Shown here: piece by piece, positions 9,571 through 52,515 of the stretch
Position numbering within the stretch: the stretch's first letter is position 1
Layout: each line of letters starts with the position of its first letter
From: a virus
Taxonomy: Duplodnaviria; Caudoviricetes
IMG/VR virus record: IMGVR_UViG_3300035704_000011
Span: 1 to 55,941 of that record
Length of the DNA stretch: 55,941 nucleotides
Strand: one strand, 5' to 3'
Position numbers and translations under genes: made by a program
The notes under the pieces: generated by a model
Seen by the model: only the letters and a program-made list of their open reading frames with translations
Database searches by the model: none
What the model was told of the DNA's origin: nothing

Positions 9571-9783
9571 TCAGGGTTGCTCTTGATCTTTGACCCGCCA
9601 AACTTCAACGACCTTGGCAGGCTCGAATTCGAGTTTTCGCCCTTCAATGATTACGAGATCCCGATAGCCGTATTCGTTCTCCGCCGCCTTTTTGACCAAG
9701 TCCAGCACATCGGCAAGGCGGTCAAATTCTTTTCGGCTGGCTGACGAGCCGTATCCCCAGAAAGCAAAGTATCGGTCGCACAT
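9571..9783 (-). CDS. Hypothetical protein (antisense moron)
   Basis: 70-aa ORF filling the gap, lower GC. Confidence 0.5.
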   Translation of the reverse strand: MCDRYFAFWGYGSSASRKEFDRLADVLDLVKKAAENEYGYRDLVIIEGRKLEFEPAKVVEVWRVKDQEQP

Positions 9784-11914
9784 GGCTGGCCCTTTCTACT
9801 TCGCCTGGACAGCGCCGGATGAGCTGTGGAGCTCCAGCGTCCTGCGCGAGGACGAAGCAATCTTCGCGATCGAGCTGCGCCAGGTAGAGGGCGATTTCTG
9901 CACCCTGCAGATCGATCTCGTCAACCCGCGGGTCGGCCTGCTGGCGGCCGGACGCGGCCTGTGGAGCTGGCTGTCGTGGACCCCGGCGGGCGGCGACGCG
10001 ATGCCGATCTTCCGCGGCCGTCTCGTCGGCGTGCCAGAAAACCTGCAGGATGAGGTCGTGCGGCTCCAATTCATCGCGCGGCCCGCCGACTACAACGCGC
10101 AAAAGGCGGCCGTCGCGGCGACCCTGCAAGTCGCGCCCTATTGGGATCCGGTGTGGCTCAAGGACAAGGTCGACGATCCCGACACCGTGCTCGAGAGCCG
10201 GCCGGTGCTGTGGCACATCGACCGCGTGACGCTCGCGGTTAGCGTCTCTGACATCATCGACGGCGAGGATGGTACGGTCGACGTCACTGAGGCCGATCAT
10301 TTTTATGACGCGATGACCGTCAGTTATGGTCAGACGCCGCTTCGCGAGGTCACGGTGACCGGAACCGTCACCTGGGCGCAGACGGGCGATGGCACGGTCG
10401 ACCTGACGCCGCCGCTGATCGCCGCGTTTCAGAATTCCGGTTCGCCGCTGGGGTCGCCGCTGATCGCCAGCCTGACGAGCGACGGCCTGTTGTCGTCATG
10501 GCCATCGCCCGGCTCTAACATCGGCGGCGGCTGGTCGGTCGGGATCGATTCCAGCATCGTCAAGGCTGACTGGATCAAGCCGGCCTTTCACAAGGTGGTC
10601 TATACCGACATCGACCCGTTTCCTGTGCCGCCATTGCCGACCAACGACGTGACGGCACCCAGTGTCTGGGTGTATCCGGATTCCTGGTATTTCCCGACGC
10701 CCATTAATAACTTGCGAACTCTGTTGGGTGGCAACGCGGCGGTCAAAACCTGGGGCATCGTGTTCCCGGTCACGCCGCTGTCTGTCCAGTTGATGGCCGA
10801 CTGGATCGCTAACCGCAATCGCTCGGAAACCGTGACCTTCACCCTGTCGGCCGATGTTCAGCCGATTATCACCGACCCTGGCAGCGACGAGAGCACCGCC
10901 CTTACCTATTCCTCGGACGTGATCGGCCAGGCGGTCGATCCGGGCGGTGCCGTGCCGCTCGGCGACCCGGGCCTCGCCAGCTACTTCAAATCTGATCGCG
11001 GCGTGCAGAGCTTCGAATATCTCGTGACATTGGCGCGCGCCAAATTGCTGGCGCGGGCGCGCTGTGTGATCGTCAAATTCGTCGCGCCGTGGGATTTGGT
11101 CATCCCGTGGATCTCGTGCCGTATCAATGTGAAATTGTTCGACGGCCGTTTGCCTGGGGGCGGCGTCATCGGCAAGGTCACCGGCTACGTGCTGACGTTC
11201 AGCGATCAGGGCATCGCGGCCGAGGTGACGCTGGGATGCACGGTCGGGCGGGGCAATACGGTGCAGGGATCGCCCGGCGATCCGACCTACGCCGAGGCGG
11301 GCTATATCGATGGCCCGACCTATACCAGCTTTATCAACGGCCAGATCGACCTCGTGCCGGGCGAGATCACCTATCTGAGCCTCGACAATTTCGACATCCT
11401 CGATGATGGCGCCAATCTTCAGGGCCTCACCGCGTCGAGCGCATTGCAGCCGACGCTGGCGGTCAGCCTCTCGACCCGGTGCACCACGATCCTCGGCAGC
11501 ACAACGGTGCTCAGATTGGGCCCCATCGACGGCCTGGAAAACGGCGGCCTCTACGCGATCGATGATGGAGGCCACGGTTTTATCCAGCCGGGCTCGCTGT
11601 TCACGTTCGACGGAACCAGCGGCGGCACGTTGAGCGTCGGCGCGAGCGCCCACGGAGACGGCATCGACGTGACGATCAGCCGGGCGGCCTCAAACGGCAT
11701 TACGGTAATCAATGGGCTCGCCGACCAGGTTAACGCGGTCAATCAGGCCGCACGCGTAACGGCCATGCCCGACCCGCTGGGGGCATTGAAACGTCTGCCT
11801 ACCACCGTCTGCCTCGAGCTCAGAAGCCTCGATGGCGGCTCGTTCAACACGACATTTCCGATGCAGCTGTCGCAGCTGATGGTGCCCAAGACGATCGACC
11901 TCGAAGCCGCGTAA
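9782..11914 (+). CDS. Tail tip/hub protein
   Basis: MAGPFYFAW start, 710 aa, PIFRGRLVGVP; position in tail module. Confidence 0.75.
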   Translation: MAGPFYFAWTAPDELWSSSVLREDEAIFAIELRQVEGDFCTLQIDLVNPRVGLLAAGRGLWSWLSWTPAGGDAMPIFRGRLVGVPENLQDEVVRLQFIARPADYNAQKAAVAATLQVAPYWDPVWLKDKVDDPDTVLESRPVLWHIDRVTLAVSVSDIIDGEDGTVDVTEADHFYDAMTVSYGQTPLREVTVTGTVTWAQTGDGTVDLTPPLIAAFQNSGSPLGSPLIASLTSDGLLSSWPSPGSNIGGGWSVGIDSSIVKADWIKPAFHKVVYTDIDPFPVPPLPTNDVTAPSVWVYPDSWYFPTPINNLRTLLGGNAAVKTWGIVFPVTPLSVQLMADWIANRNRSETVTFTLSADVQPIITDPGSDESTALTYSSDVIGQAVDPGGAVPLGDPGLASYFKSDRGVQSFEYLVTLARAKLLARARCVIVKFVAPWDLVIPWISCRINVKLFDGRLPGGGVIGKVTGYVLTFSDQGIAAEVTLGCTVGRGNTVQGSPGDPTYAEAGYIDGPTYTSFINGQIDLVPGEITYLSLDNFDILDDGANLQGLTASSALQPTLAVSLSTRCTTILGSTTVLRLGPIDGLENGGLYAIDDGGHGFIQPGSLFTFDGTSGGTLSVGASAHGDGIDVTISRAASNGITVINGLADQVNAVNQAARVTAMPDPLGALKRLPTTVCLELRSLDGGSFNTTFPMQLSQLMVPKTIDLEAA

Positions 11915-23531: not shown

Positions 23532-23999
23532 TTAGACATCTATGTCGCTCGCGCTAGACACCCAATTCCAAAATCCTTGCGCACCGCGGTGCGGGATAGG
23601 CGGTTCGAAGCGCTCGATGCTCGTAAGCGGCCAGGCGAATTTGTGCGCATCGATCCGATCACTGTCGAATTCCCTTTTCCAGTTGGTGCGCACCCATTCG
23701 AGCGCCGGCACTGACCTGCCAATGATCGCCGTGCCGAGGATCGACGACAGCGGCCAGGATTTGGTGTGAACGGTAGCCAACAGTGGGCGCGCGATTTCGC
23801 AGATAAGAGACGTCTCCTCGTCGTCGATGCGGGCGATGATGTCGGCGATCTCATCCGCCCGCGCCGGCCGCGCGCCTGCGTGGAGGGCGATGCGCTGCCC
23901 AACGATCCGCTTCGGACAATACCAGCTTCGCCATTCGACGGTCTTCGCACCGGCGATGATCAGGCTACACCAAGGCTGCCAAATCGTGAGGGCTTTCAC
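23532..23999 (-). CDS. ASCH domain protein (copy 1)
   Basis: ALTIWQPWCSLIIAGAKTVEWRSW...IALHAG...RGAQGFW. Confidence 0.85.
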   Translation of the reverse strand: MKALTIWQPWCSLIIAGAKTVEWRSWYCPKRIVGQRIALHAGARPARADEIADIIARIDDEETSLICEIARPLLATVHTKSWPLSSILGTAIIGRSVPALEWVRTNWKREFDSDRIDAHKFAWPLTSIERFEPPIPHRGAQGFWNWVSSASDIDV

Positions 24000-25030
24000 T
24001 TCCGCCTCGGCCTGAGCTTCGCGACCGCCGCGACGGCGCGCTTTTTGCGATCCGCTTCCTCGCTGTAGTGCGCGGCCATCTGCAGGGTCTTGTGGCCGAG
24101 CAGCGCGGCGATGGTGCGCGAGTCGGCGCCGCGGTCGGCGAGCAGCCGACCCGCCGTGTGACGTAGACCGTGGAAAGTCAGCCCCGGCCGCACCTTCCCC
24201 TCTACCTGGAGCTTGCGGACGAGCCGGAAGAACATGACGCGGAAGCCGTTCCCGCTGTAGGGCCGCCCGCTCTGGTTGGCGACCAGGGTTAGCGCGACGA
24301 TATGAATCCGACTTTCCGACTCGGCGTCCAAAATGGTCTTTAGCTGCGGGTGCACCGGCAGCTCGACCAGTGATCCGGTCTTGCCCTGCGACCAGCGCAG
24401 CCAGCTGCCGTCATAGATCGACCGCTGCGCGCGGATGACGTCGCCCTCGCGCATGCCCGCAAACATGCCGAGCGCGATCCCGACCTTAAGGCCGCCAGAG
24501 GCTGCCGCGAGCACCACATCGCACTCGTCTGGGTCCCATGCTCGATTAGCTTGTGGCGTCCCGCGCGGCCGGCGCAATTTCGGCACGGTCGCCGCCTGGT
24601 TGGTTTCGACCAGGTCGCGCACGGCTCCCCACTTCAGCAACAGCCGCAGCACGCTCAGGACATAGTTGGCGAACCGCCGCCTGTGCGCCTGGAAGGCCGC
24701 GTCCCGCACCTCGATCACGTAGGCCGAGGTGATTCCGAGCAGCGCGTCACCATCGAGTGGCCGCAGATAGTCGAATACCTTTTGATAGTCAGCCCGTGTC
24801 CGGGGTGCGAGCTCGAGGAACTCCGGCGAGCGGTGATAGGCGGCGATCAGCGCGCCGAGTGTTCCCGGGTTCGGCGCCTGCGGCCGCTGGCCGTCTAGCC
24901 GCTCAACCTCAGCCAGGAATGCGGCGGTGCCGAACGGTGCGTGGATGCGGGTGCCGGTGCGCCGGTGGTAGGCGTAGAGCCTCCCGCGGCTGCGGTAGAG
25001 CTTAACGCCGCGCACCTTGATCTCCACCAT
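23996..25030 (-). CDS. int: Tyrosine integrase
   Basis: GMREGD, QGKTG, FHGLRHT, LGHKT...HY catalytic motifs. Confidence 0.95.
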   Translation of the reverse strand: MVEIKVRGVKLYRSRGRLYAYHRRTGTRIHAPFGTAAFLAEVERLDGQRPQAPNPGTLGALIAAYHRSPEFLELAPRTRADYQKVFDYLRPLDGDALLGITSAYVIEVRDAAFQAHRRRFANYVLSVLRLLLKWGAVRDLVETNQAATVPKLRRPRGTPQANRAWDPDECDVVLAAASGGLKVGIALGMFAGMREGDVIRAQRSIYDGSWLRWSQGKTGSLVELPVHPQLKTILDAESESRIHIVALTLVANQSGRPYSGNGFRVMFFRLVRKLQVEGKVRPGLTFHGLRHTAGRLLADRGADSRTIAALLGHKTLQMAAHYSEEADRKKRAVAAVAKLRPRRK

Positions 25031-25826
25031 CGGCCATCCCCCGCACCGCAGAGAGGACAGCTTTCGCCACCGCGCGGCCCATGGCAAGCGGGACGCCGTT
25101 CCCTACAGCCTTGCGCTTGCTGGTCGCCGCAAGCGGGCAATCCTTATCGGCCAGGAAATCCGGTGGCAGCCCCTGCAGCTCGCACATGCGCGACAGCGGC
25201 ATTGCCCGTCCTGTGGTCGGCAGCCGCCCACCATCCCATCCTCGGTTCAGGCACGACGATCGGCCGCCGCTCTCAGTCGGTTTCCGCAATCCGCCCTTTA
25301 GCTTACCACTACCGCCGATTTTCACTGGAATTATTTCGCGCGCATCGCAAGTCACCGCTCGTTCCGGGTCTGGCCGATGAAGCGCAAGCGTGTCGATCCT
25401 AAGCCGGGTGCTGTCCGGCGAGCCAAAGCTGAAGCGGCGCTGTCGGTTGGTCAGTCCGCCAACCCAAACATCGCGGAGAATTTCGTCGCGGACGTGATAG
25501 CCCTCGACCGATGGGAGCGGCGCGTCTGGCACGTTCTCCATCAGGAACCATCCTGGCCGCGCCTCGGCAACGCACCGATCAAATTCCGGGGTCAGGTTTT
25601 CGGCTAGCTGATGGCCGTTTGCAGAGATGATGAACCGCAGCTTGCTGAATGCCTGGCACGGCGGGCCGCCTATCACGCCATCAAATTTGCCGGCTGGCGG
25701 ATGGAACTGCTTAATATCGCCGCCCCACAGCAGATCCGGCCCGCGCACGACACAAAAGCCGACCTCCTCGAAGGCCCGGTCCAAAAGGCCTATTCCTGGA
25801 AACAGGGACAGCACCAGTTTCATCAC
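25002..25826 (-). CDS. DNA cytosine-5 methyltransferase
   Basis: SLFPGIG, GGPPCQ, MENV, RQRRF, VGNGVP motifs. Confidence 0.92.
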   Translation of the reverse strand: MMKLVLSLFPGIGLLDRAFEEVGFCVVRGPDLLWGGDIKQFHPPAGKFDGVIGGPPCQAFSKLRFIISANGHQLAENLTPEFDRCVAEARPGWFLMENVPDAPLPSVEGYHVRDEILRDVWVGGLTNRQRRFSFGSPDSTRLRIDTLALHRPDPERAVTCDAREIIPVKIGGSGKLKGGLRKPTESGGRSSCLNRGWDGGRLPTTGRAMPLSRMCELQGLPPDFLADKDCPLAATSKRKAVGNGVPLAMGRAVAKAVLSAVRGMADGGDQGARR

Positions 25827-29951: not shown

Positions 29952-30880
29952 GCAACAATCCCCTGCCCTTCGCCGACCGGCGCCACTTCCTGCGTGCGCT
30001 CGATCTTGATCTTGGTCTGCACCGAGGCCTTGCGGATCTCTTTCGCCCCGTCGTGCGGCGCGCAGATGGTCGGCCGGATCGGAATTCGGGTAATCTTGCA
30101 GCGCGCGCCGTTGACGATCAGCCGGCCGGCGGTGCCGGTGCGCGCCAGAATCTTCGCCTGCATCAGTTCCTTGAGTTTGCGATTAAAGGTTTCATCCTTG
30201 CGCGCCGACGCAAACTGCCGAACCGTCTCCGCCAGCTCCTGGTCCTCGAGGTCCTCGATGATCTCTTCGGGATCGGCAGTCGGATAGAGCGCGGCGAGCA
30301 TCGGCAACTCGAGCGGCGAGCCCAGCGGATCAGGCGCGTCGTTCCTTTCGATGCTTTCGAAGAACAACGCCGCCTCCTCGCGCAGCCGGTCGGCCAACTC
30401 GCCGTTGCGCTCGCGTTCTAGCCAGCGCATTTCGTTGCCGCCGACCAGCGCGGCGATGATCCCATGATCGGTGCCGGCGGCGAGCATCTGGACCTGCAGC
30501 TGGATCTCGACATGCGGCGCTGCGGCGGTCTCGCTCCAGGTTTCTTTCCACCTGAGCCAGTCGATATTTTTCGCTTCGACAATGACGGGTCCGCGATCCG
30601 GCATGACCATCCGGCCATCGATCGTCGCCCCGAGTTGGCCGGCGCGCGTATATTCGTTGGCCGTGTTCTCGGCGACCTCCAGCCGGTAGGCGAGCGACGT
30701 GGCGTAGAGAATATCGTCCTGCAGCAGCTTGCCCCAGGCGATCCGCTCATTGCCGGCAACCTCCAGCGGCATGCCGTTTTTGAAGTGATGCCAGAGCATA
30801 AATTTGGTGAAGTACGGGTGCGCGTTGAACAGGGCCGCCGCTTGCGAGGCCGACACGCTTTGCTGGGTCGGATCGGGCAT
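29948..30880 (-). CDS. YqaJ/lambda-exonuclease-like recombination nuclease
   Basis: VSASQAAAL, GATIDG, VEAKN, QLQVQM. Confidence 0.85.
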   Translation of the reverse strand: MPDPTQQSVSASQAAALFNAHPYFTKFMLWHHFKNGMPLEVAGNERIAWGKLLQDDILYATSLAYRLEVAENTANEYTRAGQLGATIDGRMVMPDRGPVIVEAKNIDWLRWKETWSETAAAPHVEIQLQVQMLAAGTDHGIIAALVGGNEMRWLERERNGELADRLREEAALFFESIERNDAPDPLGSPLELPMLAALYPTADPEEIIEDLEDQELAETVRQFASARKDETFNRKLKELMQAKILARTGTAGRLIVNGARCKITRIPIRPTICAPHDGAKEIRKASVQTKIKIERTQEVAPVGEGQGIVA

Positions 30881-32549: not shown

Positions 32550-32863
32550 ACGAGGCCCCGGGACAGCTCGATCGCCGCCTGTTGAATCGTAATTACAGCC
32601 TTGTCCGCATGCGCTTGCGCTTTATGCCGAGCGCTCGCTGCCGCGTCGCGGGTGTCATAAACCAGCGCGGCGTCGAACCACTGCGGTCGCGAATACCGGC
32701 CTTGTGGATCGTGCTTGCTGCCGGCAACTTCAAGACAGATCTGCAGCCGCCCGGCACGGGTGCGCTCAGCCCGACCTTGGAGGAAGCACAGCCTAGCAAG
32801 GCGAGCTCCGGGCCCGGCTACGAGCCAGCGGATGTTGTCGGCGGCGGCGGCCGGCGCGATCAT
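32546..32863 (-). CDS. Hypothetical protein
   Basis: Coupled ORF. Confidence 0.5.
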   Translation of the reverse strand: MIAPAAAADNIRWLVAGPGARLARLCFLQGRAERTRAGRLQICLEVAGSKHDPQGRYSRPQWFDAALVYDTRDAAASARHKAQAHADKAVITIQQAAIELSRGLV

Positions 32864-34143
32864 CCCGCCGCTCCGGCGAGCGACTGGAATTCCGCGATCC
32901 AGCCCTCAACGATCATCGCCAGTTGATTCGTCGCTGGAGTGTCGCCCTTGTGGATCCCGAGAAACCAACGCTCAATCTGCCGATCAGAATTGGCAAAGCC
33001 GAGTTCACTTAACGGCACGCGCCGAATATTGGCGATCGTTCCAGCCAAGCAGGCGCAATCGCCGGTGTAGGTCGATCCGTCTATCCGACCTTCGCGTAGG
33101 GCGGCGAGCAGGCCAGGGATCTCGGGCTGCGCGCGCAATAGAACATCCCAAAAATCATTGCGGACGCCGTCGAGGCGGGCGCCGTCGAGGCTGGCGCCGA
33201 AGAGGCTGGCGCCGTCGAGGCGGGCGCCGTCGAGGCGGGCGGCGTCGAGGCTGGCGCCGACGAGGCTGGCGCCGAAGAGGCGGGCGCCGTCGAGGCGGGC
33301 GCCGTCGAGGCGGGCGCCGTCGAGGCGGGCGGCGTCGAGGCGGGCGCCGACGAGGCTGCCGCCGTCGAGGCTGGCGCCGAAGAGGCGGGCGCCGACGAGG
33401 CTGGCGCGGTCGAGGCGGGCGCCGTCGAGGCGGGCGCCGTCGAGGCGGGCGCCGTCGAGGCGGGCGGCGTCGAGGCTGGCGCCGTCGAGGCGGGCGCGGT
33501 CGAGGCGGGCGCCGTCGAGGCGGGCGGCGTCGAGGCTGGCGCCGACGAGGCTGGCGCCGTCGAGGCTGGCGCCGAAGAGGCGGGCGCCGACGAGGCTGGC
33601 GCGGTCGAGGCGGGCGCCGTCGAGGCGGGCGCCGTCGAGGCGGGCGCCGTCGAGGCTGGCGCCGACGAGGCTGGCGCCGACGAGGCTGGCGCCGACGAGG
33701 CTGGCGCGGTCGAGGCGGGCGCCGTCGAGGTGGGCGCCGTCGAGGCGGGCGCCGTCGAGGCGGGCGGCGTCGAGGCTGGCGGCGTCGAGGCTGGCGCCGA
33801 CGAGGCTGGCGTCGAGGCGGGCGCCGTCGAGGCTGGCGCCGACGAGGTGGGCGCCGTCGAGGCGGGCGCCGTCGAGGCGGGCGGCGTCGAGGCTGGCGCC
33901 GACGAGGCGGGCGCCGACGAGGCTGGCGCCGTCGAGGCGGGCGCCGTCGAGGCTGGCGCCGACGAGGCGGGCACCGTCGAGGCTGGCGCCGTCTGAGACT
34001 ACGATCTCAAGCGCGGCACGAAGGTACCATCGCTCTTCGTAGGCCGGGATCTGCACCTCAAGTGAGGCGCGGCCCGTCCATCTGAGGAACGGGATCTTTA
34101 CGGTGATGGTGCCGGTAGCGGCGTCGGCGTCGTCGTCTGGCAT
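32860..34143 (-). CDS. Pentapeptide repeat protein
   Basis: About 55 A(R/S)L(D/V/F)G repeats between non-repetitive ends; GGAGGGGAG RBS. Confidence 0.92.
33163..33993. repeat. 15-bp tandem repeat tract encoding the pentapeptides
   Basis: Near-identical gccgtcgaggcgggc units; one 12-bp unit near 33805. Confidence 0.95.
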
Positions 34144-34170
34144 GCTCCCCTCCCGCATATTGTCCGAGCC

Positions 34171-34223
34171 ACGATATTTGCATTCATGCACATTGGTCAA
34201 GAGGAAAGTTTGCAATTATGCGC
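34171..34223 (-). promoter_or_regulatory. PL-like promoter and OL operators
   Basis: -35 TTGACC (34200-34195), -10 TATCGT (34176-34171); TTGCA-N4-TGCRC boxes at 34178-34191 and 34210-34223. Confidence 0.75.
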
Positions 34224-48676: not shown

Positions 48677-49084
48677 ATGAAGGTTATGAAAGCTGTCCTG
48701 ACCTGGGGCATGCCAGCCACGCTGGCCTTGCTGGTCTCGTGCTCGCCTGCAATGGCGGCCAGCACGACGACGTCGAACGTAGTGATTACCGTCAAGCACT
48801 CTGCGGCGGTCATCGCTGTGGCGCCTAGCGCACCAAGTATTTTCGACGACCTCGCCGCCGGCCAGATCGTCTTTGTCGCGACGGTGACGATGACGAATGG
48901 AAAGGCTTTCGCCGGCCAGGTCAGCTTTTCCGATCCCAGCAATGTGTTCAGCCTAGTGCCGGCGAGCCCTCAAACGACACCCCCATCGTGGAACGTGGTT
49001 GTGGGCGCAAACGGTCTGCTGAGCATGATCCCGGCGGGCCAAGCGCAAATTATTGACACCGTGTCGATCACCGCGAAGCCGTAA
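48677..49084 (+). CDS. Exported cadherin/Ig-like protein (moron)
   Basis: Signal peptide ending AMA-A; beta-sandwich resembling C-terminus of 7125-7886. Confidence 0.65.
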   Translation: MKVMKAVLTWGMPATLALLVSCSPAMAASTTTSNVVITVKHSAAVIAVAPSAPSIFDDLAAGQIVFVATVTMTNGKAFAGQVSFSDPSNVFSLVPASPQTTPPSWNVVVGANGLLSMIPAGQAQIIDTVSITAKP

Positions 49085-49088
49085 AAAA

Positions 49089-49298
49089 ATGGCGGATGAT
49101 GCTGCGAGCCAGCTCGCCGCGCTCAAGAAAGCAAGAGCCAGCGGTGTGCTGACCGTGCACCACGGCGACACGTCGACGACGTTCCGCACGCTGGCGGAAA
49201 TCGACTCGATCGTCCGCAGCCTCGAAGCCGAAGCCGAGGCCGCCAGCAGCCCGCGCCCTCGGTTGCGCTACGCGGTTCAGCTGACCAAGGGCCTCTGA
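49089..49298 (+). CDS. Head completion protein (gpW-like)
   Basis: QLAALKKARASGVLTV.HGD....FRTLAEI. Confidence 0.88.
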   Translation: MADDAASQLAALKKARASGVLTVHHGDTSTTFRTLAEIDSIVRSLEAEAEAASSPRPRLRYAVQLTKGL

Positions 49299-49307
49299 AG
49301 GATAGCG

Positions 49308-50198
49308 TCAGGCCGCTGCGCGCGGCGTGTCTTCGGCGGGATGCACGCGCAATCTGGGCTCCAAATCAGAGCCGGCATCCCGCCACGCCCGCCACAGATC
49401 GCGCAGCAGGCGCTTTGTCATATAGCGGCGCGCGTCGGCATCGGCGTGCGCCGGGGTCCAGCCGCGGGCCAGCACCCAGGCCTTGCGCTCGGCGTAGGCC
49501 TCGCCGTAGGGACCGATCGGGTGGGCTGGCGCATCGTCCTTGGCGCCGCGCCACTGCGCGCGGAACAGCACGTCGGAGCAGAAGACCCAGACCTCGGCGC
49601 GGCGTTGCCGGTTGTAGCCATGCCGGATCCAGTCATCCTTGGTGGCGCCCTCGCCGGGGCTGCCCTGGCGGTGACCGTCGAAGACCGCGAGGCCGAGCCG
49701 CTTCCACAGCTTTGCGGGGTTGGCATAATTGCCGAGATCGCCGGCCTCGCCGACGATAACGGCAAGGCCGAGCTCGCCGAAGCCGCGGACGGCGTGGACG
49801 AACGAGATTGCCGGCAATGCGCGAGCCAGCTTGATCATGCGCTTCTCGACATCGCCGCGCAGCTGGTCCCAGGTGGCGCGCGACGCCGCCGATGCGATGA
49901 CCAGACGCGGCAGGTCGCTATTCGCCGGGAACTGGTCGATCTTGCCGCCCTCGATCTCGCGGCGCAGCTTTGCGGCTGCGCTGAAGAGCGCCTTCCGCTC
50001 GGCTGGGACAAGGCTGGTATGGTAGCCCGACGACCGCGCCAGCAGCGCCTCGATCGAACGATCGCAGCGCTGCTGCTGGCGGATGCAAAAGATCCTGTGG
50101 CGTTGCCGCTCAATAAGATTTTCGCAGGCCTCGCTGACGGACATGTTCCCCAAGGGGGGCAGCGTCGACCCGGTCCGTCCGGCGCGGTCGTCAGGCAT
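49308..50198 (-). CDS. IS110/Nop-fold RNA-binding protein without nuclease domain (TasA-like); alternative start at 50144
   Basis: Coiled coil, VRGFGELGLAVIVGEAGDLGNYANPAKLWKRLGL, YNRQRR, ARRYMTKRLLRDLWRAW match the IS110 C-terminal half; no DEDD RuvC or HNH. Confidence 0.82.
   Translation of the reverse strand: MPDDRAGRTGSTLPPLGNMSVSEACENLIERQRHRIFCIRQQQRCDRSIEALLARSSGYHTSLVPAERKALFSAAAKLRREIEGGKIDQFPANSDLPRLVIASAASRATWDQLRGDVEKRMIKLARALPAISFVHAVRGFGELGLAVIVGEAGDLGNYANPAKLWKRLGLAVFDGHRQGSPGEGATKDDWIRHGYNRQRRAEVWVFCSDVLFRAQWRGAKDDAPAHPIGPYGEAYAERKAWVLARGWTPAHADADARRYMTKRLLRDLWRAWRDAGSDLEPRLRVHPAEDTPRAAA
49335..49384 (-). ncRNA. Guide-like hairpin unit 5 (3' end of Tas-like gene)
   Basis: GGCGGGATGC-CG-gctctgatt-TGGAGCCCA-gattgcgcg-T-GCATCCCGCC. 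Confidence 0.8.
50136..50179 (-). ncRNA. Guide-like hairpin unit 4 (5' end of Tas-like gene)
   Basis: GACGGAC-CG-ggtcgacgc-TGCCCCCCT-tggggaaca-T-GTCCGTC. Confidence 0.7.
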
Positions 50199-50862
50199 TC
50201 GGCGCGCTGGTCGCGAGTTTCCAGCAGAGCATGATCTCGTCGTCGGAGCGCTCGCCGATCAGCATCGAATCGGGCATGCCCTCCGTGACCAGGGCGGCAA
50301 AGCGCACCCATGCGCCTTGGGCGAGGCCCCAGGCGCGCAGCTCGCCGGCCGAGAGCTGCGCGAGCTGTTTGCCGTTGATGACATGGTCGAGCAGGAAGCA
50401 GCGCTTGGCTCGCTCGACCGCAGCCTGAGCCGCGGTTGATGGCCCAGCTGGCGGACGGGCATCACGGCTTTGGGTATCAATTGCGGAACGGCCCGTCGCG
50501 CTCGGCTGGGTTTGGTGTGGTCTAGCCGCGGGCTGGGCATGCGGGGGCTGGGCATCGTGCCCTTTATGGCCTGACCCGGGGCTGGATTTCGCTTTGTTGC
50601 GCTCACGCATTTCGTGCAGCACCTGTCTGAACAGGTGGAGCATGGCCGGCCCGCGGACCTCGGCGACGAGCTCCCAGATCAGCGCTGCGGCATCATCGTC
50701 GGCGAGCAGCGTCTGCTCGAAAACGACGAGAGACGGCTCGGGGATGCCCTTGCCGATGCGGATCGCTGCCGCCATGAGCGAGCGCAGCCGCTCGGCGGCC
50801 GTCTGAAACCCGGCTGCCCGCATGGCGGTGCCGACGGTCGTGGGTGTTTCGATCTCTTGCAC
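50191..50862 (-). CDS. Tas-associated hypothetical protein whose linker is encoded by two guide units
   Basis: GTG start with AGAGGGGGA RBS; two helical domains joined by a P/Q/H/A-rich linker. Confidence 0.75.
   Translation of the reverse strand: MQEIETPTTVGTAMRAAGFQTAAERLRSLMAAAIRIGKGIPEPSLVVFEQTLLADDDAAALIWELVAEVRGPAMLHLFRQVLHEMRERNKAKSSPGSGHKGHDAQPPHAQPAARPHQTQPSATGRSAIDTQSRDARPPAGPSTAAQAAVERAKRCFLLDHVINGKQLAQLSAGELRAWGLAQGAWVRFAALVTEGMPDSMLIGERSDDEIMLCWKLATSAPNA
50454..50497 (-). ncRNA. Guide-like hairpin unit 3
   Basis: GACGGGC-CG-ttccgcaat-TGATACCCA-aagccgtga-T-GCCCGTC. Confidence 0.82.
50530..50577 (-). ncRNA. Guide-like hairpin unit 2
   Basis: GGGTCAGGC-CA-taaagggca-CGATGCCCA-gcccccgca-T-GCCCAGCCC (imperfect stem). 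Confidence 0.72.
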
Positions 50863-50879
50863 AGGCTTCCCCCTCTGCT

Positions 50880-50933
50880 GCGGGTCGCGGCATCAGTGAA
50901 ATGGGCGGCAAACTTATTAGGGCCGCAACCCGC
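50880..50933 (-). ncRNA. Guide-like hairpin unit 1 (5' leader)
   Basis: GCGGGTTGCGGC-CC-taataagtt-TGCCGCCCA-tttcactga-T-GCCGCGACCCGC. Confidence 0.8.
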
Positions 50934-50939
50934 GGGCCG

Positions 50940-50968
50940 AGAGTAGCAATCGCGAGAGGGTGACGCAA
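50940..50968 (-). promoter_or_regulatory. Sigma70-type promoter of the Tas-like moron
   Basis: -35 TTGCGT (50968-50963), 17 bp, extended -10 TGcTACTCT (50945-50940); predicted +1 near 50933. Confidence 0.7.
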
Positions 50969-50973
50969 CGCAA

Positions 50974-52515
50974 ATGCCACTGGACGGGCCGCGCATCCTC
51001 GACCGGTACGGCAATCCGGCGCGCCGCGCCACCGGGCTCAACCCCGGCGCCATCGGCGGAACCGCCGCATCGCCGCATGCCTCGTGGGATGCCGGCCAGA
51101 CCGGGCGCCGCCTCAGCGCGATCCCGACCGCGGCGCGCTCGATCAACACGCTGCTGCGCAGCTATGGCAAGGCGGTGCTGGCGCGGTCGCGCTACCTGGC
51201 GGCTAACAACCCTTATGCCGCGGCGGCGCGCGAGGCCTACATCAGCTCGATGGTCGGCTCGGGCATTATCCCGTCGCCGAATTTCGACGACGCGAAATTG
51301 AAGGCGACGGTCAATCAGGTCTGGGATGACTGGACCGACGAGGCGGACGCCGACTGGATCACCAATTTCTACGGGCTGCAGTCGATCATTGCCGGCGAGC
51401 TCTTCGAGGCCGGCGAGGTCTTTGTCCGGTTCCGCCCGCGCATGCAGCAGGACGGTTTTATCGTGCCGCTGCAATTGCAGGTGCTGCCGGCCGAGATGCT
51501 CGATGCGAACTGGAACCGGAACCTCAACCTCGGCAACGGCAGCCGTATCGAGTGTGGCATCGAGTTCGATGCGATCGGGCGACGCCGCGCCTACCACTTC
51601 TGGGCCACGTTCCCCGGCACCGACCAATATTTCGGGGTGGGCCCATGGACCCGGATCGCGGTGCCCGCCGACCAGATCCTGCACATCTACCGGCCGATCC
51701 GCGCCGGCCAGCTGCGCGGGATCCCGCACACCCTCTCGATGATCACGACCTTGGCGTTGCTTGATCTCTACGACGACGCCGAGCTCGAGCGGAAGCGCGT
51801 CGCGGCGCTCTTCGGCGCCTTTATCACGCGGCCCGACCGCGACGACGAGGACCACCCGCTCGGGATGGCGCAGAACCTGACGACACCGCGCGGCGACGTG
51901 CAGCCGAGCCCGGCGCTGGAGCCGGGTGTGACGGTCGATCTGGCGCCCGGCGAGGACATCAAATTTGCCGAGCCGGCCGATGTCGGCAGCACCTATGAGC
52001 CATTCCAGTACCGCTGCCTGCTGCGGGCCGCCGCCGGCGCCGGCATACTCTATTCGGACATGACCGGGGACCTGCGGCGCACCTCGTTCGGATCGATCCG
52101 CGCCGGCCTCATCGCGCACCGCCGGCGCGTCGACACACTGCAGCAGTCGGTGATCATCTATCAGCTGTGCCAGCGGGTCTATAACCGTTGGTGGACTGAG
52201 GCGGTGTTAGCCGGCGCGTTGCCGGTCAGCCCGGCCGATTTTGCGGCCAATCAGCGGATGTACCGCCGCGCCGACTGGATCCCGCCGAAATGGGACTGGA
52301 TCGACCCGCTGAAGGACATCGAAGCCGAGCAGCTCGCGGTGCAGAACGGATTCAAGTCGCGCAGCGCCGTCATCAAAGGGACGGGACTGGACCCGGCGAT
52401 CGTCGACATGGAACGAAAACAGGATTTCGAGCGCGAGACGAGGCTCGGCCTGCCGCATACAGAGGCCCAGCCGCCGCCGCCGGTTCCGGCCGGCGCGAGC
52501 GGGCCATCGGAGTGA
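50974..52515 (+). CDS. Portal protein (lambda family)
   Basis: ARSRYLAANNPYA, RAGQLRGIP, TGDL....FGSIRAG, WDWIDPLKD. Confidence 0.95.
   Translation: MPLDGPRILDRYGNPARRATGLNPGAIGGTAASPHASWDAGQTGRRLSAIPTAARSINTLLRSYGKAVLARSRYLAANNPYAAAAREAYISSMVGSGIIPSPNFDDAKLKATVNQVWDDWTDEADADWITNFYGLQSIIAGELFEAGEVFVRFRPRMQQDGFIVPLQLQVLPAEMLDANWNRNLNLGNGSRIECGIEFDAIGRRRAYHFWATFPGTDQYFGVGPWTRIAVPADQILHIYRPIRAGQLRGIPHTLSMITTLALLDLYDDAELERKRVAALFGAFITRPDRDDEDHPLGMAQNLTTPRGDVQPSPALEPGVTVDLAPGEDIKFAEPADVGSTYEPFQYRCLLRAAAGAGILYSDMTGDLRRTSFGSIRAGLIAHRRRVDTLQQSVIIYQLCQRVYNRWWTEAVLAGALPVSPADFAANQRMYRRADWIPPKWDWIDPLKDIEAEQLAVQNGFKSRSAVIKGTGLDPAIVDMERKQDFERETRLGLPHTEAQPPPPVPAGASGPSE

Follow-up and report, generated by a model that had tools for sequence, protein, structure and literature searches.

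What does a two-gene cassette that lies antisense within the head operon of a phage, and that carries five hairpins, encode, and what would its products do? The window, by which we mean the whole stretch of DNA that was analyzed (55,941 nucleotides of IMG/VR record IMGVR_UViG_3300035704_000011), comes from a temperate soil phage, and the first-pass annotation, made from the letters alone, had read the cassette as a TasA-type RNA-guided DNA binder. The first descriptions of TIGR-Tas systems date from 2025-26, and the discussions of two of the papers concerned pose the natural targets and roles as questions (Faure 2025, PMC12045711; Xu 2026, 10.64898/2026.09.09.750476). In the stem-loop arrays linked to TasA, two 8-12-nt spacers are accompanied by box C/D motifs and variable palindromes, and processing yields an RNA that comprises the entire stem-loop unit (Faure 2025). 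Stem-loop systems have flexible positions and fewer units, their intragenic units get processed and bound, and TasA has been shown to bind DNA and to repress under RNA guidance (Xu 2026). Stem-loop arrays, nuclease-free TasA, and guides within coding sequence are all already in print (Faure 2025; Xu 2026). We conclude that the cassette is very probably a stem-loop TIGR-TasA system of a temperate phage. The earlier interpretation is supported by the protein, by the guides, and by their association, each in the tests described below, and the outcome that it named, repression or interference, would hold for the phage TasA by analogy with tested relatives.

An antisense cassette inserted between gpW and portal

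The carrier phage has an integrase, RecT/RecE-like genes, and a lambda-like head module, and its GC content is ~64%. The cassette, which consists of a companion gene and tasA on the minus strand, is flanked by the gpW and portal genes as an antisense insertion (Table 1), an arrangement on which gene calls, Pfam, and PHROG agree with the first-pass annotation. None of 26 portal relatives has the cassette at the gpW-portal site, which bears out its earlier description as a moron, and the evidence is that the head operon received the cassette by insertion. The named portal relatives are from Mesorhizobium and Bradyrhizobium (53-58% identity). Relatives of TasA were found in Acetobacteraceae, Azospirillum, Rhodoferax, and others, the closest among those with DNA to compare being 49-54% identical. 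A search for a promoter-like site for the cassette found none.

The system is also present in a relative that has been cultured, Rhizobium phage RHph_X2_25 (host Sinorhizobium americanum), where it adjoins the repressor gene; this phage and its host are the place where the biology is directly testable.

Table 1. Positions in the window of the cassette genes, their neighbors, and the five candidate guide units, with covariance model (CM) scores and folding z scores
Feature	Coordinates	Strand	Core	Description	Spacers	CM bits	CM E	Folding z
gpW	49053-49298			PHROG head-tail adaptor Ad1				
tasA	49308..50144	-		Nuclease-free Tas (Nop-domain) protein; 278-aa gene call (P0001)				
U5	49335..49384	-	49344-49375	Within tasA 3' end, codes for variable C-terminal tail	GCTCTGATT / GATTGCGCG	32.8	9.3e-5	-4.4
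U4	50136..50179	-	50142-50173	Past companion stop codon (50193-50191), overlaps tasA start	GGTCGACGC / TGGGGAACA	22.1	0.021	0.0
Companion	50191..50862	-		223 aa; single gene call (P0241)				
U3	50454..50497	-	50460-50491	In frame in companion linker, aa 122-137	TTCCGCAAT / AAGCCGTGA	30.6	2.9e-4	-2.1
U2	50530..50577	-	50538-50569	In frame in companion linker, aa 96-112	TAAAGGGCA / GCCCCCGCA	24.1	0.0077	-1.0
U1	50880..50933	-	50891-50922	5' leader of companion gene	TAATAAGTT / TTTCACTGA	32.2	1.2e-4	-3.2
Portal	50974-52515			Lambda-type portal; Pfam E 8.4e-90				

A Tas-like protein with no detected nuclease domain

The tasA gene call can be extended to a longer frame of 296 aa that starts at 50198, and aa 94 to 273 of this frame match the NCBIfam model NF052498 (TIGR_Tas_endo) with an E value of 7.9e-18 and 65.2 bits, a score that lies under the equivalog cut-off of 100 bits. 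A profile built from 31 sequences of the family matched TaTasR of structure 9MTY with an E value of 1.4e-8, the aligned regions being those of the HhH and the C-terminal helix; Faure 2025 cites this structure, and the stretch of its chain aligned by the profile is the TaTasR sequence given in the portion of Table S1 of that paper considered here.

An AlphaFold2 (AF2) model of TasA (pLDDT 89.2, pTM 0.81) has long N-terminal helices at residues 3-38, 47-65, and 78-107. The first-pass annotation had proposed a fold comparison with Tas, IS110, and Nop5 proteins, and when the model was compared with solved structures in Foldseek, TasR and TasH came first, followed by IS621 and then by Nop5. The top matches, to TasR and TasH, had a probability of 1.00 and TM scores of 0.44-0.54 by query; the E value for 9mty_B was 2.4e-4, and the TasH entries reached 0.52-0.54 by query and 0.48-0.62 by target. 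IS621 (8wt9) followed with an E value of 0.022, ISCro4 was also among the fold matches, and Nop5 (3id5) was a weak match, with a probability of 0.44 and a TM score of 0.27. Searches of Pfam and NCBIfam at E values up to 1 detected no RuvC, HNH, or DEDD domain in TasA, so the earlier claim that RuvC and HNH are missing stands. As judged from sequence profiles and the predicted fold, this 278-aa product belongs to the Tas proteins and is nuclease-free, with a Nop-type core that appears homologous to that of the characterized Tas proteins.

Five candidate guide units on the tasA strand

All five hairpins listed by the first-pass annotation were found on the minus strand where it had placed them, inside 1.6 kb and on the strand of tasA. 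Every unit fits the pattern CC-N-9N-YG-N3-CCCW-9N-TG (that is, CCN-9-YG-N3-C-CCW-9-TG), with all box positions and the exact 9-3-9 spacing retained in 5/5 units. The ten spacers all differ, and the stems differ in sequence from unit to unit, as the annotation had said; the conserved core, which it had described as an invariant loop of 30 nt, is 32 nt long from CC to TG. The 32-nt pattern has 7 occurrences in the window, where 0.77 would be expected by chance; none of 100 shuffles reached 7. The remaining two matches, at 10641-10672 and 10683-10714, are on the plus strand and have no flanking stem.

The units vary in the quality of their stems and in how they are embedded in the genes. U1 has a 12-pair stem with one mismatch, the stem of U2 is weak (two mismatches and one wobble), and in U4 the second box C is CCT. 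The folding energies of U1, U3, and U5 stand out from those of shuffled sequences, whereas those of U2 and U4 are no better than shuffles (Table 1), so the case for the units is built on motif, register, and strand instead. U2 and U3 form the sole neighboring pair, 32 nt apart, and U1, U4, and U5 stand single. Four of the five overlap genes, namely U2 and U3 in the companion open reading frame (ORF), U4 at the tasA start, where its box D TG is the final two bases of the tasA ATG (50144-50142), and U5 in the tasA tail. Because these four overlap coding or start-codon sequence, their spacers are under other constraints, and it may be that some of the four do not function as guides. The C-terminal tail of TasA that U5 encodes has a pLDDT under 50, and the tails of homologues retain (L/M)xP and VxPPA, the codons of which correspond to the box and stem positions of U5.

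An Rfam search returned nothing at threshold. [quoted passage not shown] RNAs of ~36 nt had been expected from the units, but the published processed RNA of stem-loop systems is the whole unit, which here would be about 44-58 nt.

The units covary and accompany tasA homologues on one strand

The first-pass annotation had suggested looking for similar 9-9-9 hairpins near homologues, and these are present. In 80 viral loci the strict motif occurred 128 times on the gene strand and once on the other, and 116 of the 128 have stems of 5 pairs or more; in the 110 loci with relatives the counts were 166 and 2, or 149 and 0 when a stem was included. A relaxed motif combined with a stem of at least 6 pairs gave 469 matches on the gene strand and 40 on the other in the same 110 loci. 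By these motifs, 48/110 loci (strict) and 80/110 (relaxed) were positive. Unit positions recur as well, with 20 units in companion ORFs and 11 at tasA 3' ends in the relatives. Box D as an in-frame, open xTG start codon was found in just 7/53 upstream units (85 loci), so the overlap of box D with the tasA start in the window is idiosyncratic.

The stems in this family covary, as we found with 113 related units that were chosen without regard to stems. Pairing was present in 81.6% of cells, compared with 49.7% after shuffling and 42-54% in slid registers; the covariation score was 0.772 against 0.211 shuffled, a value that 0/500 shuffles reached, and all 10 stem pairs change on both sides. The loop consensus of the family is TGAnACCCA. 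A covariance model built from other loci only, and thus blind to the window, placed the five window units at ranks 1 to 5, all on the minus strand and with E values from 9.3e-5 (U5, the top match) to 0.021.

A conserved companion of tasA

The gene upstream of tasA is a regular partner, in that 91/110 loci encode, upstream of tasA and on the same strand, a homologue of its C-terminal domain. Its AF2 model is confident for residues 9-93 and 143-219, and residues 102-136 have a pLDDT under 50; the layout is that of two helical domains with a disordered linker between them, and it is this linker that encodes U2 and U3. The companion had no match in Pfam, NCBIfam, PHROGs, or PDB sequences, its fold had no PDB match in Foldseek at an E value of 0.001 or better, and 0/24 members of its family matched the ParB models of Pfam.

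One reading, which we put forward tentatively and think rather unlikely as a whole, is that the companion is a working partner of the TasA clade, that the nested guides give dosage control, and that the natural job of the system is phage-phage warfare. Since the guides are nested in the linker and at the tasA start codon, guide release and protein synthesis would compete on each transcript, which could provide the dosage control. The guide of a relative (L039/L096) has its predicted site at the codons of the conserved WKRMGL motif in rival tasA genes, and the tasA gene of L039/L096 itself is mismatched at 5/18 positions of that site.

Proposed mechanism and target searches

The anatomy of the cassette, the homology and fold of its protein, and the strand-specific association of the protein family with covarying units come from the analyses above. 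By analogy with published relatives, we propose that the cassette is transcribed, that the units are released from the mRNA, that binding is by a dimer, and that DNA is targeted. The minus strand from 49308 to 50933 would be transcribed through the companion gene and tasA, and five hairpins in the transcript would be guide-RNA (tigRNA) units, each with a variable stem closing its loop. Read in order, a loop would present box C (CCN), 9-nt spacer A, box D (YG), 3 nt, a C followed by the second box C (CCW), 9-nt spacer B, and box D (TG). TasA is predicted by homology to be a coiled-coil dimer of Nop-type RNA-binding domains, with one box C/D pair per protomer. Each of the two spacers would pair with a different strand of the target, an 18-bp stretch of DNA made up of the sequence of spacer A and, after it, that of spacer B in reverse complement. 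Because TasA is without a nuclease domain, we propose that the complex binds without cutting, and the likeliest outcome would be that transcription or replication is blocked at the target. As for the biological role, our guess is that the prophage silences competing mobile elements or host genes.

The published tigRNA1 and its substrate oligonucleotide served as a check on the geometry of the predicted target. Searches were for sites of this form, with a gap of 0-2 between the two spacer-derived halves. In the genome of the phage itself there was no site at up to 2 mismatches, the best having 3, and the 110 related loci contained two matches at 2 mismatches and none better. Exact matches in IMG/VR numbered 8 for U1, 9 for U3, 1 each for U2 and U4, and 0 for U5; the 17 matches to U1 and U3 were in contigs of 28-56% GC, with many near-duplicate contexts, and we read the exact IMG/VR matches as being at chance level. 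The U5 target was found in 0/5 genomes carrying relatives and 0/401 sampled alphaproteobacterial genomes.

Alternative explanations

That none of these searches (own genome, 110 loci, IMG/VR, and bacterial genomes for U5) yielded a target is what would be expected if the cassette were a decaying or domesticated relic of a TIGR-TasA system, in which the units served mainly as mRNA structure, for example in translation of the companion and tasA, and guided nothing to DNA. The coding overlap of four of the units, the unremarkable thermodynamics of U2 and U4, and the small number and dispersal of the units fit this account too. We nevertheless consider it improbable, for the five units have kept every box position and the exact spacing, the same positions recur in relatives, both ORFs are intact with GC3 values of 0.84 (tasA) and 0.78 (companion), and intragenic units are known to be processed and bound (Xu 2026).

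It is less probable still that the cassette is a box C/D-like guide system acting on RNA, by modifying or binding RNA of the host or phage. The TasA fold is related to Nop5, and the layout of the guides resembles that of box C/D sRNAs (Faure 2025, discussion), but solved Tas structures match TasA far better than Nop5 does, and of the published proteins, TasR showed no activity towards RNA and TasA binds DNA. The cassette encodes no fibrillarin-like or L7Ae-like protein, the companion being without a Pfam or NCBIfam match. Membership among the box C/D sRNPs was rejected on the absence of these two partners from the cassette and on the weakness of the Nop5 match.

We give hardly any credence to the idea that the cassette is an intact or remnant mobile element of the IS110 type whose hairpins resemble those of a bridge RNA. 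This account draws on a weak match of TasA to Transposase_20 (E 0.076), on matches to the IS110 model NF033542 (E 6.5e-5, 22 bits against a cut-off of 140) and to PHROG 4285 ("transposase"; E 1.1e-10), and on the presence of IS621 and ISCro4 among the fold matches. However, PF01548 of Pfam has no match in TasA, and the NF033542 alignment begins at model position 118 and query residue 23, so that there is no room for a DEDD/RuvC domain; Tas structures outrank IS621, the RNA would consist of five single-loop units and not of one two-loop bridge RNA, and the family constitutes a conserved operon of phages that includes a companion gene. Palindromes arising by chance, or regulatory hairpins of a generic sort, in either case without guide function, for which one could cite the ease with which GC-rich sequence folds, the z scores of U4 and U2, and the background matches of the relaxed motif on both strands of the window (some within a pentapeptide-repeat gene), have a negligible probability and were rejected as already contradicted by the pattern enrichment, the strand bias around homologues, the covariation in exact register, and the window-blind model.

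Comparison with known systems

On the preferred reading, that of a stem-loop TIGR-TasA system, the closest counterparts are PlTasA, from a Peromyscus leucopus gut contig (Faure 2025; cryo-EM in the Guan 2026 preprint, 10.64898/2026.08.11.744272), and BlTasA and MbTasA, which are stem-loop TIGR-TasA systems (Xu 2026 preprint). Set alongside the window by their published descriptions, they have in common with it a nuclease-free Tas protein with a coiled coil and a C-terminal RNA-binding domain; variable palindromic stems and two ~9-nt spacers, each within a CCA-like box C and a YG box D; gene-strand units upstream, downstream, and inside coding sequence; and a phage host. They differ in that their units form tandem subarrays, whereas the window has just five, single or in one pair; in that two window units sit in the second gene, the companion, and not in tas; and in that one window unit covers the tasA start codon and CUU is missing from the window stem bases. 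Box D is mostly TG here and CG in the PlTIGR units in the portion of Table S1 (Faure 2025) considered. That portion also contains 17 occurrences of one peptide common to related clades and none of six peptides specific to the phage TasA clade.

The dual-repeat TIGR systems (TaTasR, 9MTY; SpTasH, 9W03 and related entries) have in common with the phage system the Nop-type core, the box C/D logic, the 9-nt spacers, the predicted target rule, and the 9-nt loop TGAnACCCA, which matches the repeated TGAAACCCA of the TaTIGR array as given in the same portion of Table S1. Unlike TasR and TasH, the phage system has no RuvC or HNH, stems replace its conserved edge repeats, and there is no regular 36-nt periodicity. 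The TasParB-TasA operons (Faure 2025) likewise have a conserved gene upstream of tasA in the operon, and their arrays may lie upstream, downstream, or between genes, as they do in the phage cassette; however, the companion is not ParB-like, and published TasParB loci have dual-repeat arrays. With the IS110 recombinases IS621 and ISCro4, the phage system has in common a related coiled coil and C-terminal domain and RNA loops with paired guide segments, but it is without the DEDD catalytic domain, the two-loop bridge RNA, or any sign of mobility. Understanding of how TIGR-Tas systems work is unchanged by the locus. What it adds to the known systems is the context of a complete temperate-phage genome for TIGR-TasA and a very compact arrangement, with guides in the 5' leader, the companion linker, the start codon, and the gene tail.

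Five predicted guide hairpins in the window

All five hairpins proposed by the first-pass annotation were found, each on the minus strand (table). On that strand every core reads CC-N, 9 nt, YG, 3 nt, CCCW, 9 nt, TG and is closed by a stem, an inverted repeat with 6 to 12 pairs, that varies in sequence between units. Whereas 0.77 matches to the 32-nt pattern would be expected, the window has seven, a count reached by 0 of 100 shuffles, which bears out the original observation, and units U1 to U5 account for five of the seven. The remaining two matches (10641-10672 and 10683-10714, plus strand) are without stems and lie 10 nt apart within a 740-aa tail-region ORF (9692-11914), on the strand opposite the cassette, with a covariance-model score of just 10 bits. 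Two chance matches so near each other would be unlikely; the pair has no other guide hallmark.

Coordinates of the cassette, its surroundings and two related systems
Feature	Coordinates	Strand	Remark
Integrase	23996-25087	minus	
gpW-type head-tail adaptor	49053-49298		
tasA frame	49308-50198	minus	296 aa; database entry is 278 aa from ATG 50144-50142
U5	49335-49384	minus	guide unit
U4	50136-50179	minus	guide unit
Companion ORF	50191-50862	minus	223 aa
U3	50454-50497	minus	guide unit
U2	50530-50577	minus	guide unit
U1	50880-50933	minus	guide unit
Lambda-family portal	50974-52515		
RHph_X2_25 system (L196)	MW960032.1 21813-28463		TasA relative annotated hypothetical
L039/L096 guide	L039:3624-3655; L096:4624-4655		3' end of another phage's tasA

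Folding energy singled out only U1, U3 and U5 (z of -3.2, -2.1 and -4.4; U2 at -1.0 and U4 at 0.0 did not stand out), so it is motif, register and strand that carry the case for the hairpins. A covariance model made from units of other viral loci, with the window left out, gave its top five ranks to the five window units, all on the minus strand (E of 9.3e-5 to 0.021). A sixth match (30435-30483, plus strand; 20.5 bits, E 0.045), which has a 9-pair stem and a loop 3 bases short and lies antisense within the RecE-like exonuclease gene, is probably due to chance.

Units of the same kind surround TasA relatives

We compared 110 loci encoding a TasA relative (80 viral and 30 from bacterial genomes). 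In the viral loci the strict motif occurred 128 times on the gene strand versus once on the other, and stems with 5 or more pairs flanked 116 of the 128; with all 110 loci taken together the counts were 166 versus 2 (149 versus 0 with stems), and 48 loci had at least one strict unit. Relaxing the motif and asking for 6 or more stem pairs gave 469 versus 40 by strand, with 80 of the 110 loci positive. In the window, a 451-aa protein consisting largely of pentapeptide repeats (A-S/R-L-D/V-G; 32860-34215, minus strand, a 72% GC stretch) gives false matches with the relaxed guide motif.

Covariation was measured on the viral loci, with every distinct strict match included (113 in all, picked by loop motif only). 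Over ten flanking positions 81.6% of cells pair versus 49.7% when shuffled, and the covariation score is 0.772 versus 0.211, with 0 of 500 shuffles reaching 0.772; in slid registers pairing is 42-54%. The stems near homologues thus covary. In the related units (L001-L110) CTT peaks at 13 of 133, three bases past the stem. This clade shows little of the CUU motif that has been described at the stem bases of stem-loop tigRNAs, and it may be processed differently.

TasA is a nuclease-free Tas protein

Pfam gave only a sub-threshold match to Transposase_20, and PHROGs placed TasA in a family labelled 'transposase'. The NCBIfam TIGR-Tas effector model matched with an E value of 7.9e-18, at 65 bits under its equivalog cut-off of 100. 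Because the weak IS110 match aligns only from model position 118 on, the catalytic DEDD domain is, judging by sequence, absent. A 31-member family profile found the solved TaTasR structure 9MTY (E 1.4e-8), which is cited in Faure 2025 (PMC12045711); the aligned stretch matches the TaTasR sequence of Table S1 of that paper.

In the confident AlphaFold2 model (pLDDT 89.2, pTM 0.81), three long helices lie in the N-terminal part and the C-terminal domain is helical too; disorder is confined to the last ~17 residues, which U5 encodes. Among solved structures the model best matches TasR (9MTY, E 2.4e-4) and several TasH complexes (TM 0.52-0.54 by query, 0.48-0.62 by target), followed by IS621 and ISCro4 and then, at low probability, Nop5 and Nop56/58. 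The Tas/IS110-related fold suggested at first pass is therefore upheld, with Tas, IS110 and Nop5 all among the matches and Tas ranked first. The ESM Atlas comparison agrees with this, viral hypothetical proteins reaching TM 0.76-0.87 and IS110 transposases ~0.6. The family comprises 865 proteins at E <=1e-3 among 7189 candidates scored, and a precomputed Pfam domain was present in 0 of 120 listed members.

The cassette occupies an unusual insertion site

The window (55,941 bases, a whole virus record, GC ~64%) derives from a temperate tailed phage. Besides the genes in the table it encodes a DNA methyltransferase, RecT-like and RecE-like proteins, RusA, small and large terminase subunits, a head protease, a major head protein and a tape-measure protein. 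The interval between gpW and portal holds two minus-strand ORFs, antisense to the head genes. No tasA or companion match was present in 26 loci with portal relatives, 25 of them at 43-50% identity to the window portal and one, 98% identical, lacking the upstream region; wherever gpW was detected (4 of these loci) it directly adjoins portal. Conversely, a lambda-type terminase flanks just 1 of 110 tasA loci, and in a 12-locus sample most genes near tasA belong to the early, recombination or lysogeny classes (RusA, YqaJ, RecT, primase, HTH repressors and integrase). Since portal relatives lack the cassette and tasA loci are rarely near a lambda-type terminase, we concluded that the cassette is an insertion and its site unusual.

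Units overlap the companion gene and both ends of tasA

In 91 of 110 loci the gene strand has a homologue of the companion C-terminal domain directly upstream of tasA; the N-terminal domain occurs in 39 loci, and 36 have both within one ORF. The companion model has confident helical domains at residues 9-93 and 143-219, joined by a linker with pLDDT <50 at residues 102-136. With residues 96-112 encoded by U2 and 122-137 by U3, both units lie almost wholly within the low-confidence linker, and 20 units occupy the equivalent part of companion ORFs at other loci. The companion has no family in Pfam, NCBIfam or PHROG and no sequence or fold match in the PDB, and 0 of 24 family members match a ParB model, which rules out the published TasParB. 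No companion gene was found in the available text of Xu 2026 or Guan 2026.

The 46 nt that separate the companion stop codon from tasA are taken up by U4. The TG of its box D also ends the tasA start codon ATG, and the sole Shine-Dalgarno-like run, GGGGA, lies inside its spacer B. Translation of tasA would presumably cease if U4 were excised from the transcript or bound by TasA; because U4 holds both elements, a single transcript would either release U4 or be translated into TasA, not both. This exact overlap is not conserved, being in frame and open in 7 of 53 upstream units. U5 encodes the disordered C-terminal tail of TasA, and in the tails of homologues box- and stem-encoded residues are kept while spacer-encoded residues vary.

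A cultured relative

Rhizobium phage RHph_X2_25 (MW960032, host Sinorhizobium americanum X2_25) encodes a TasA relative at 31% identity. The 8 covariance-model matches are all on the strand of the tasA relative, some around it and some within it, and the units have CG as box D. A gene upstream is a relative of the companion (hhalign probability 79.6%, E 1.5e-5), and next to the cassette are a gene annotated as repressor C and an XRE regulator. For six parsed units, no site at <=2 mismatches was found in the phage's own genome. By these sequence likenesses, RHph_X2_25 carries the same kind of system as the window.

Target searches

Sites were predicted by the rule derived from the published tigRNA1 and its substrate oligonucleotide, in which one strand reads spacer A and then the reverse complement of spacer B; target gaps of 1-2 bp are tolerated (Faure 2025, PMC12045711, available text). 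No U1-U5 site was found in the phage's own genome at <=2 mismatches or in the 110 related loci at <=1, and the U5 site was absent from the bacterial genomes searched. Exact matches in IMG/VR were few, those of U1 and U3 falling in low-GC contigs, and we read all of the exact matches as chance.

A wider test sought sites of 198 distinct guides from 150 tasA loci and the window in the same sequences. The true geometry gave 2 matches at 1 mismatch and 25 at 2, versus 0 at <=1 and 5 to 14 at 2 in four control geometries. The excess is due to a single guide, in L039 and L096, which contributes 13 of the 27 matches (2 loci at 1 mismatch, 11 at 2); no such cluster appeared in the controls. The 18-bp site predicted for it consists of the codons that specify the conserved tasA motif WKRMGL; its own tasA differs from this site at 5 positions and the window tasA (near 49706) at 3. 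Anti-rival, phage-against-phage targeting is possible, and because this is a single post hoc event we treat it as a lead, not a result.

Comparison with published TIGR-Tas systems

In Faure 2025 (PMC12045711), stem-loop TIGR arrays carry a pair of 8-12-nt spacers bounded by box C (CCA) and box D (UG) and have variable palindromes where edge repeats would be; they are associated with nuclease-free TasA and processed to whole stem-loop units. Xu 2026 (10.64898/2026.09.09.750476) reports 2,559 stem-loop arrays with loops mostly 9 nt long; unit positions are flexible and can be at the 5' end, at the 3' end or in disordered internal stretches of tas. The same paper presents direct evidence for RNA-guided DNA binding and reversible transcriptional repression by TasA. 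Guan 2026 (10.64898/2026.08.11.744272) describes cryo-EM structures that contain PlTasA and a stem-loop guide. For the window's family the loop consensus, TGAnACCCA, matches the repeated unit TGAAACCCA of the TaTIGR array (Table S1, Faure 2025). Because every defining feature that we tested was found at the window locus, we conclude that it belongs to the published stem-loop TIGR-TasA kind, the identity put forward at first pass; by analogy, its TasA would act as a DNA binder.
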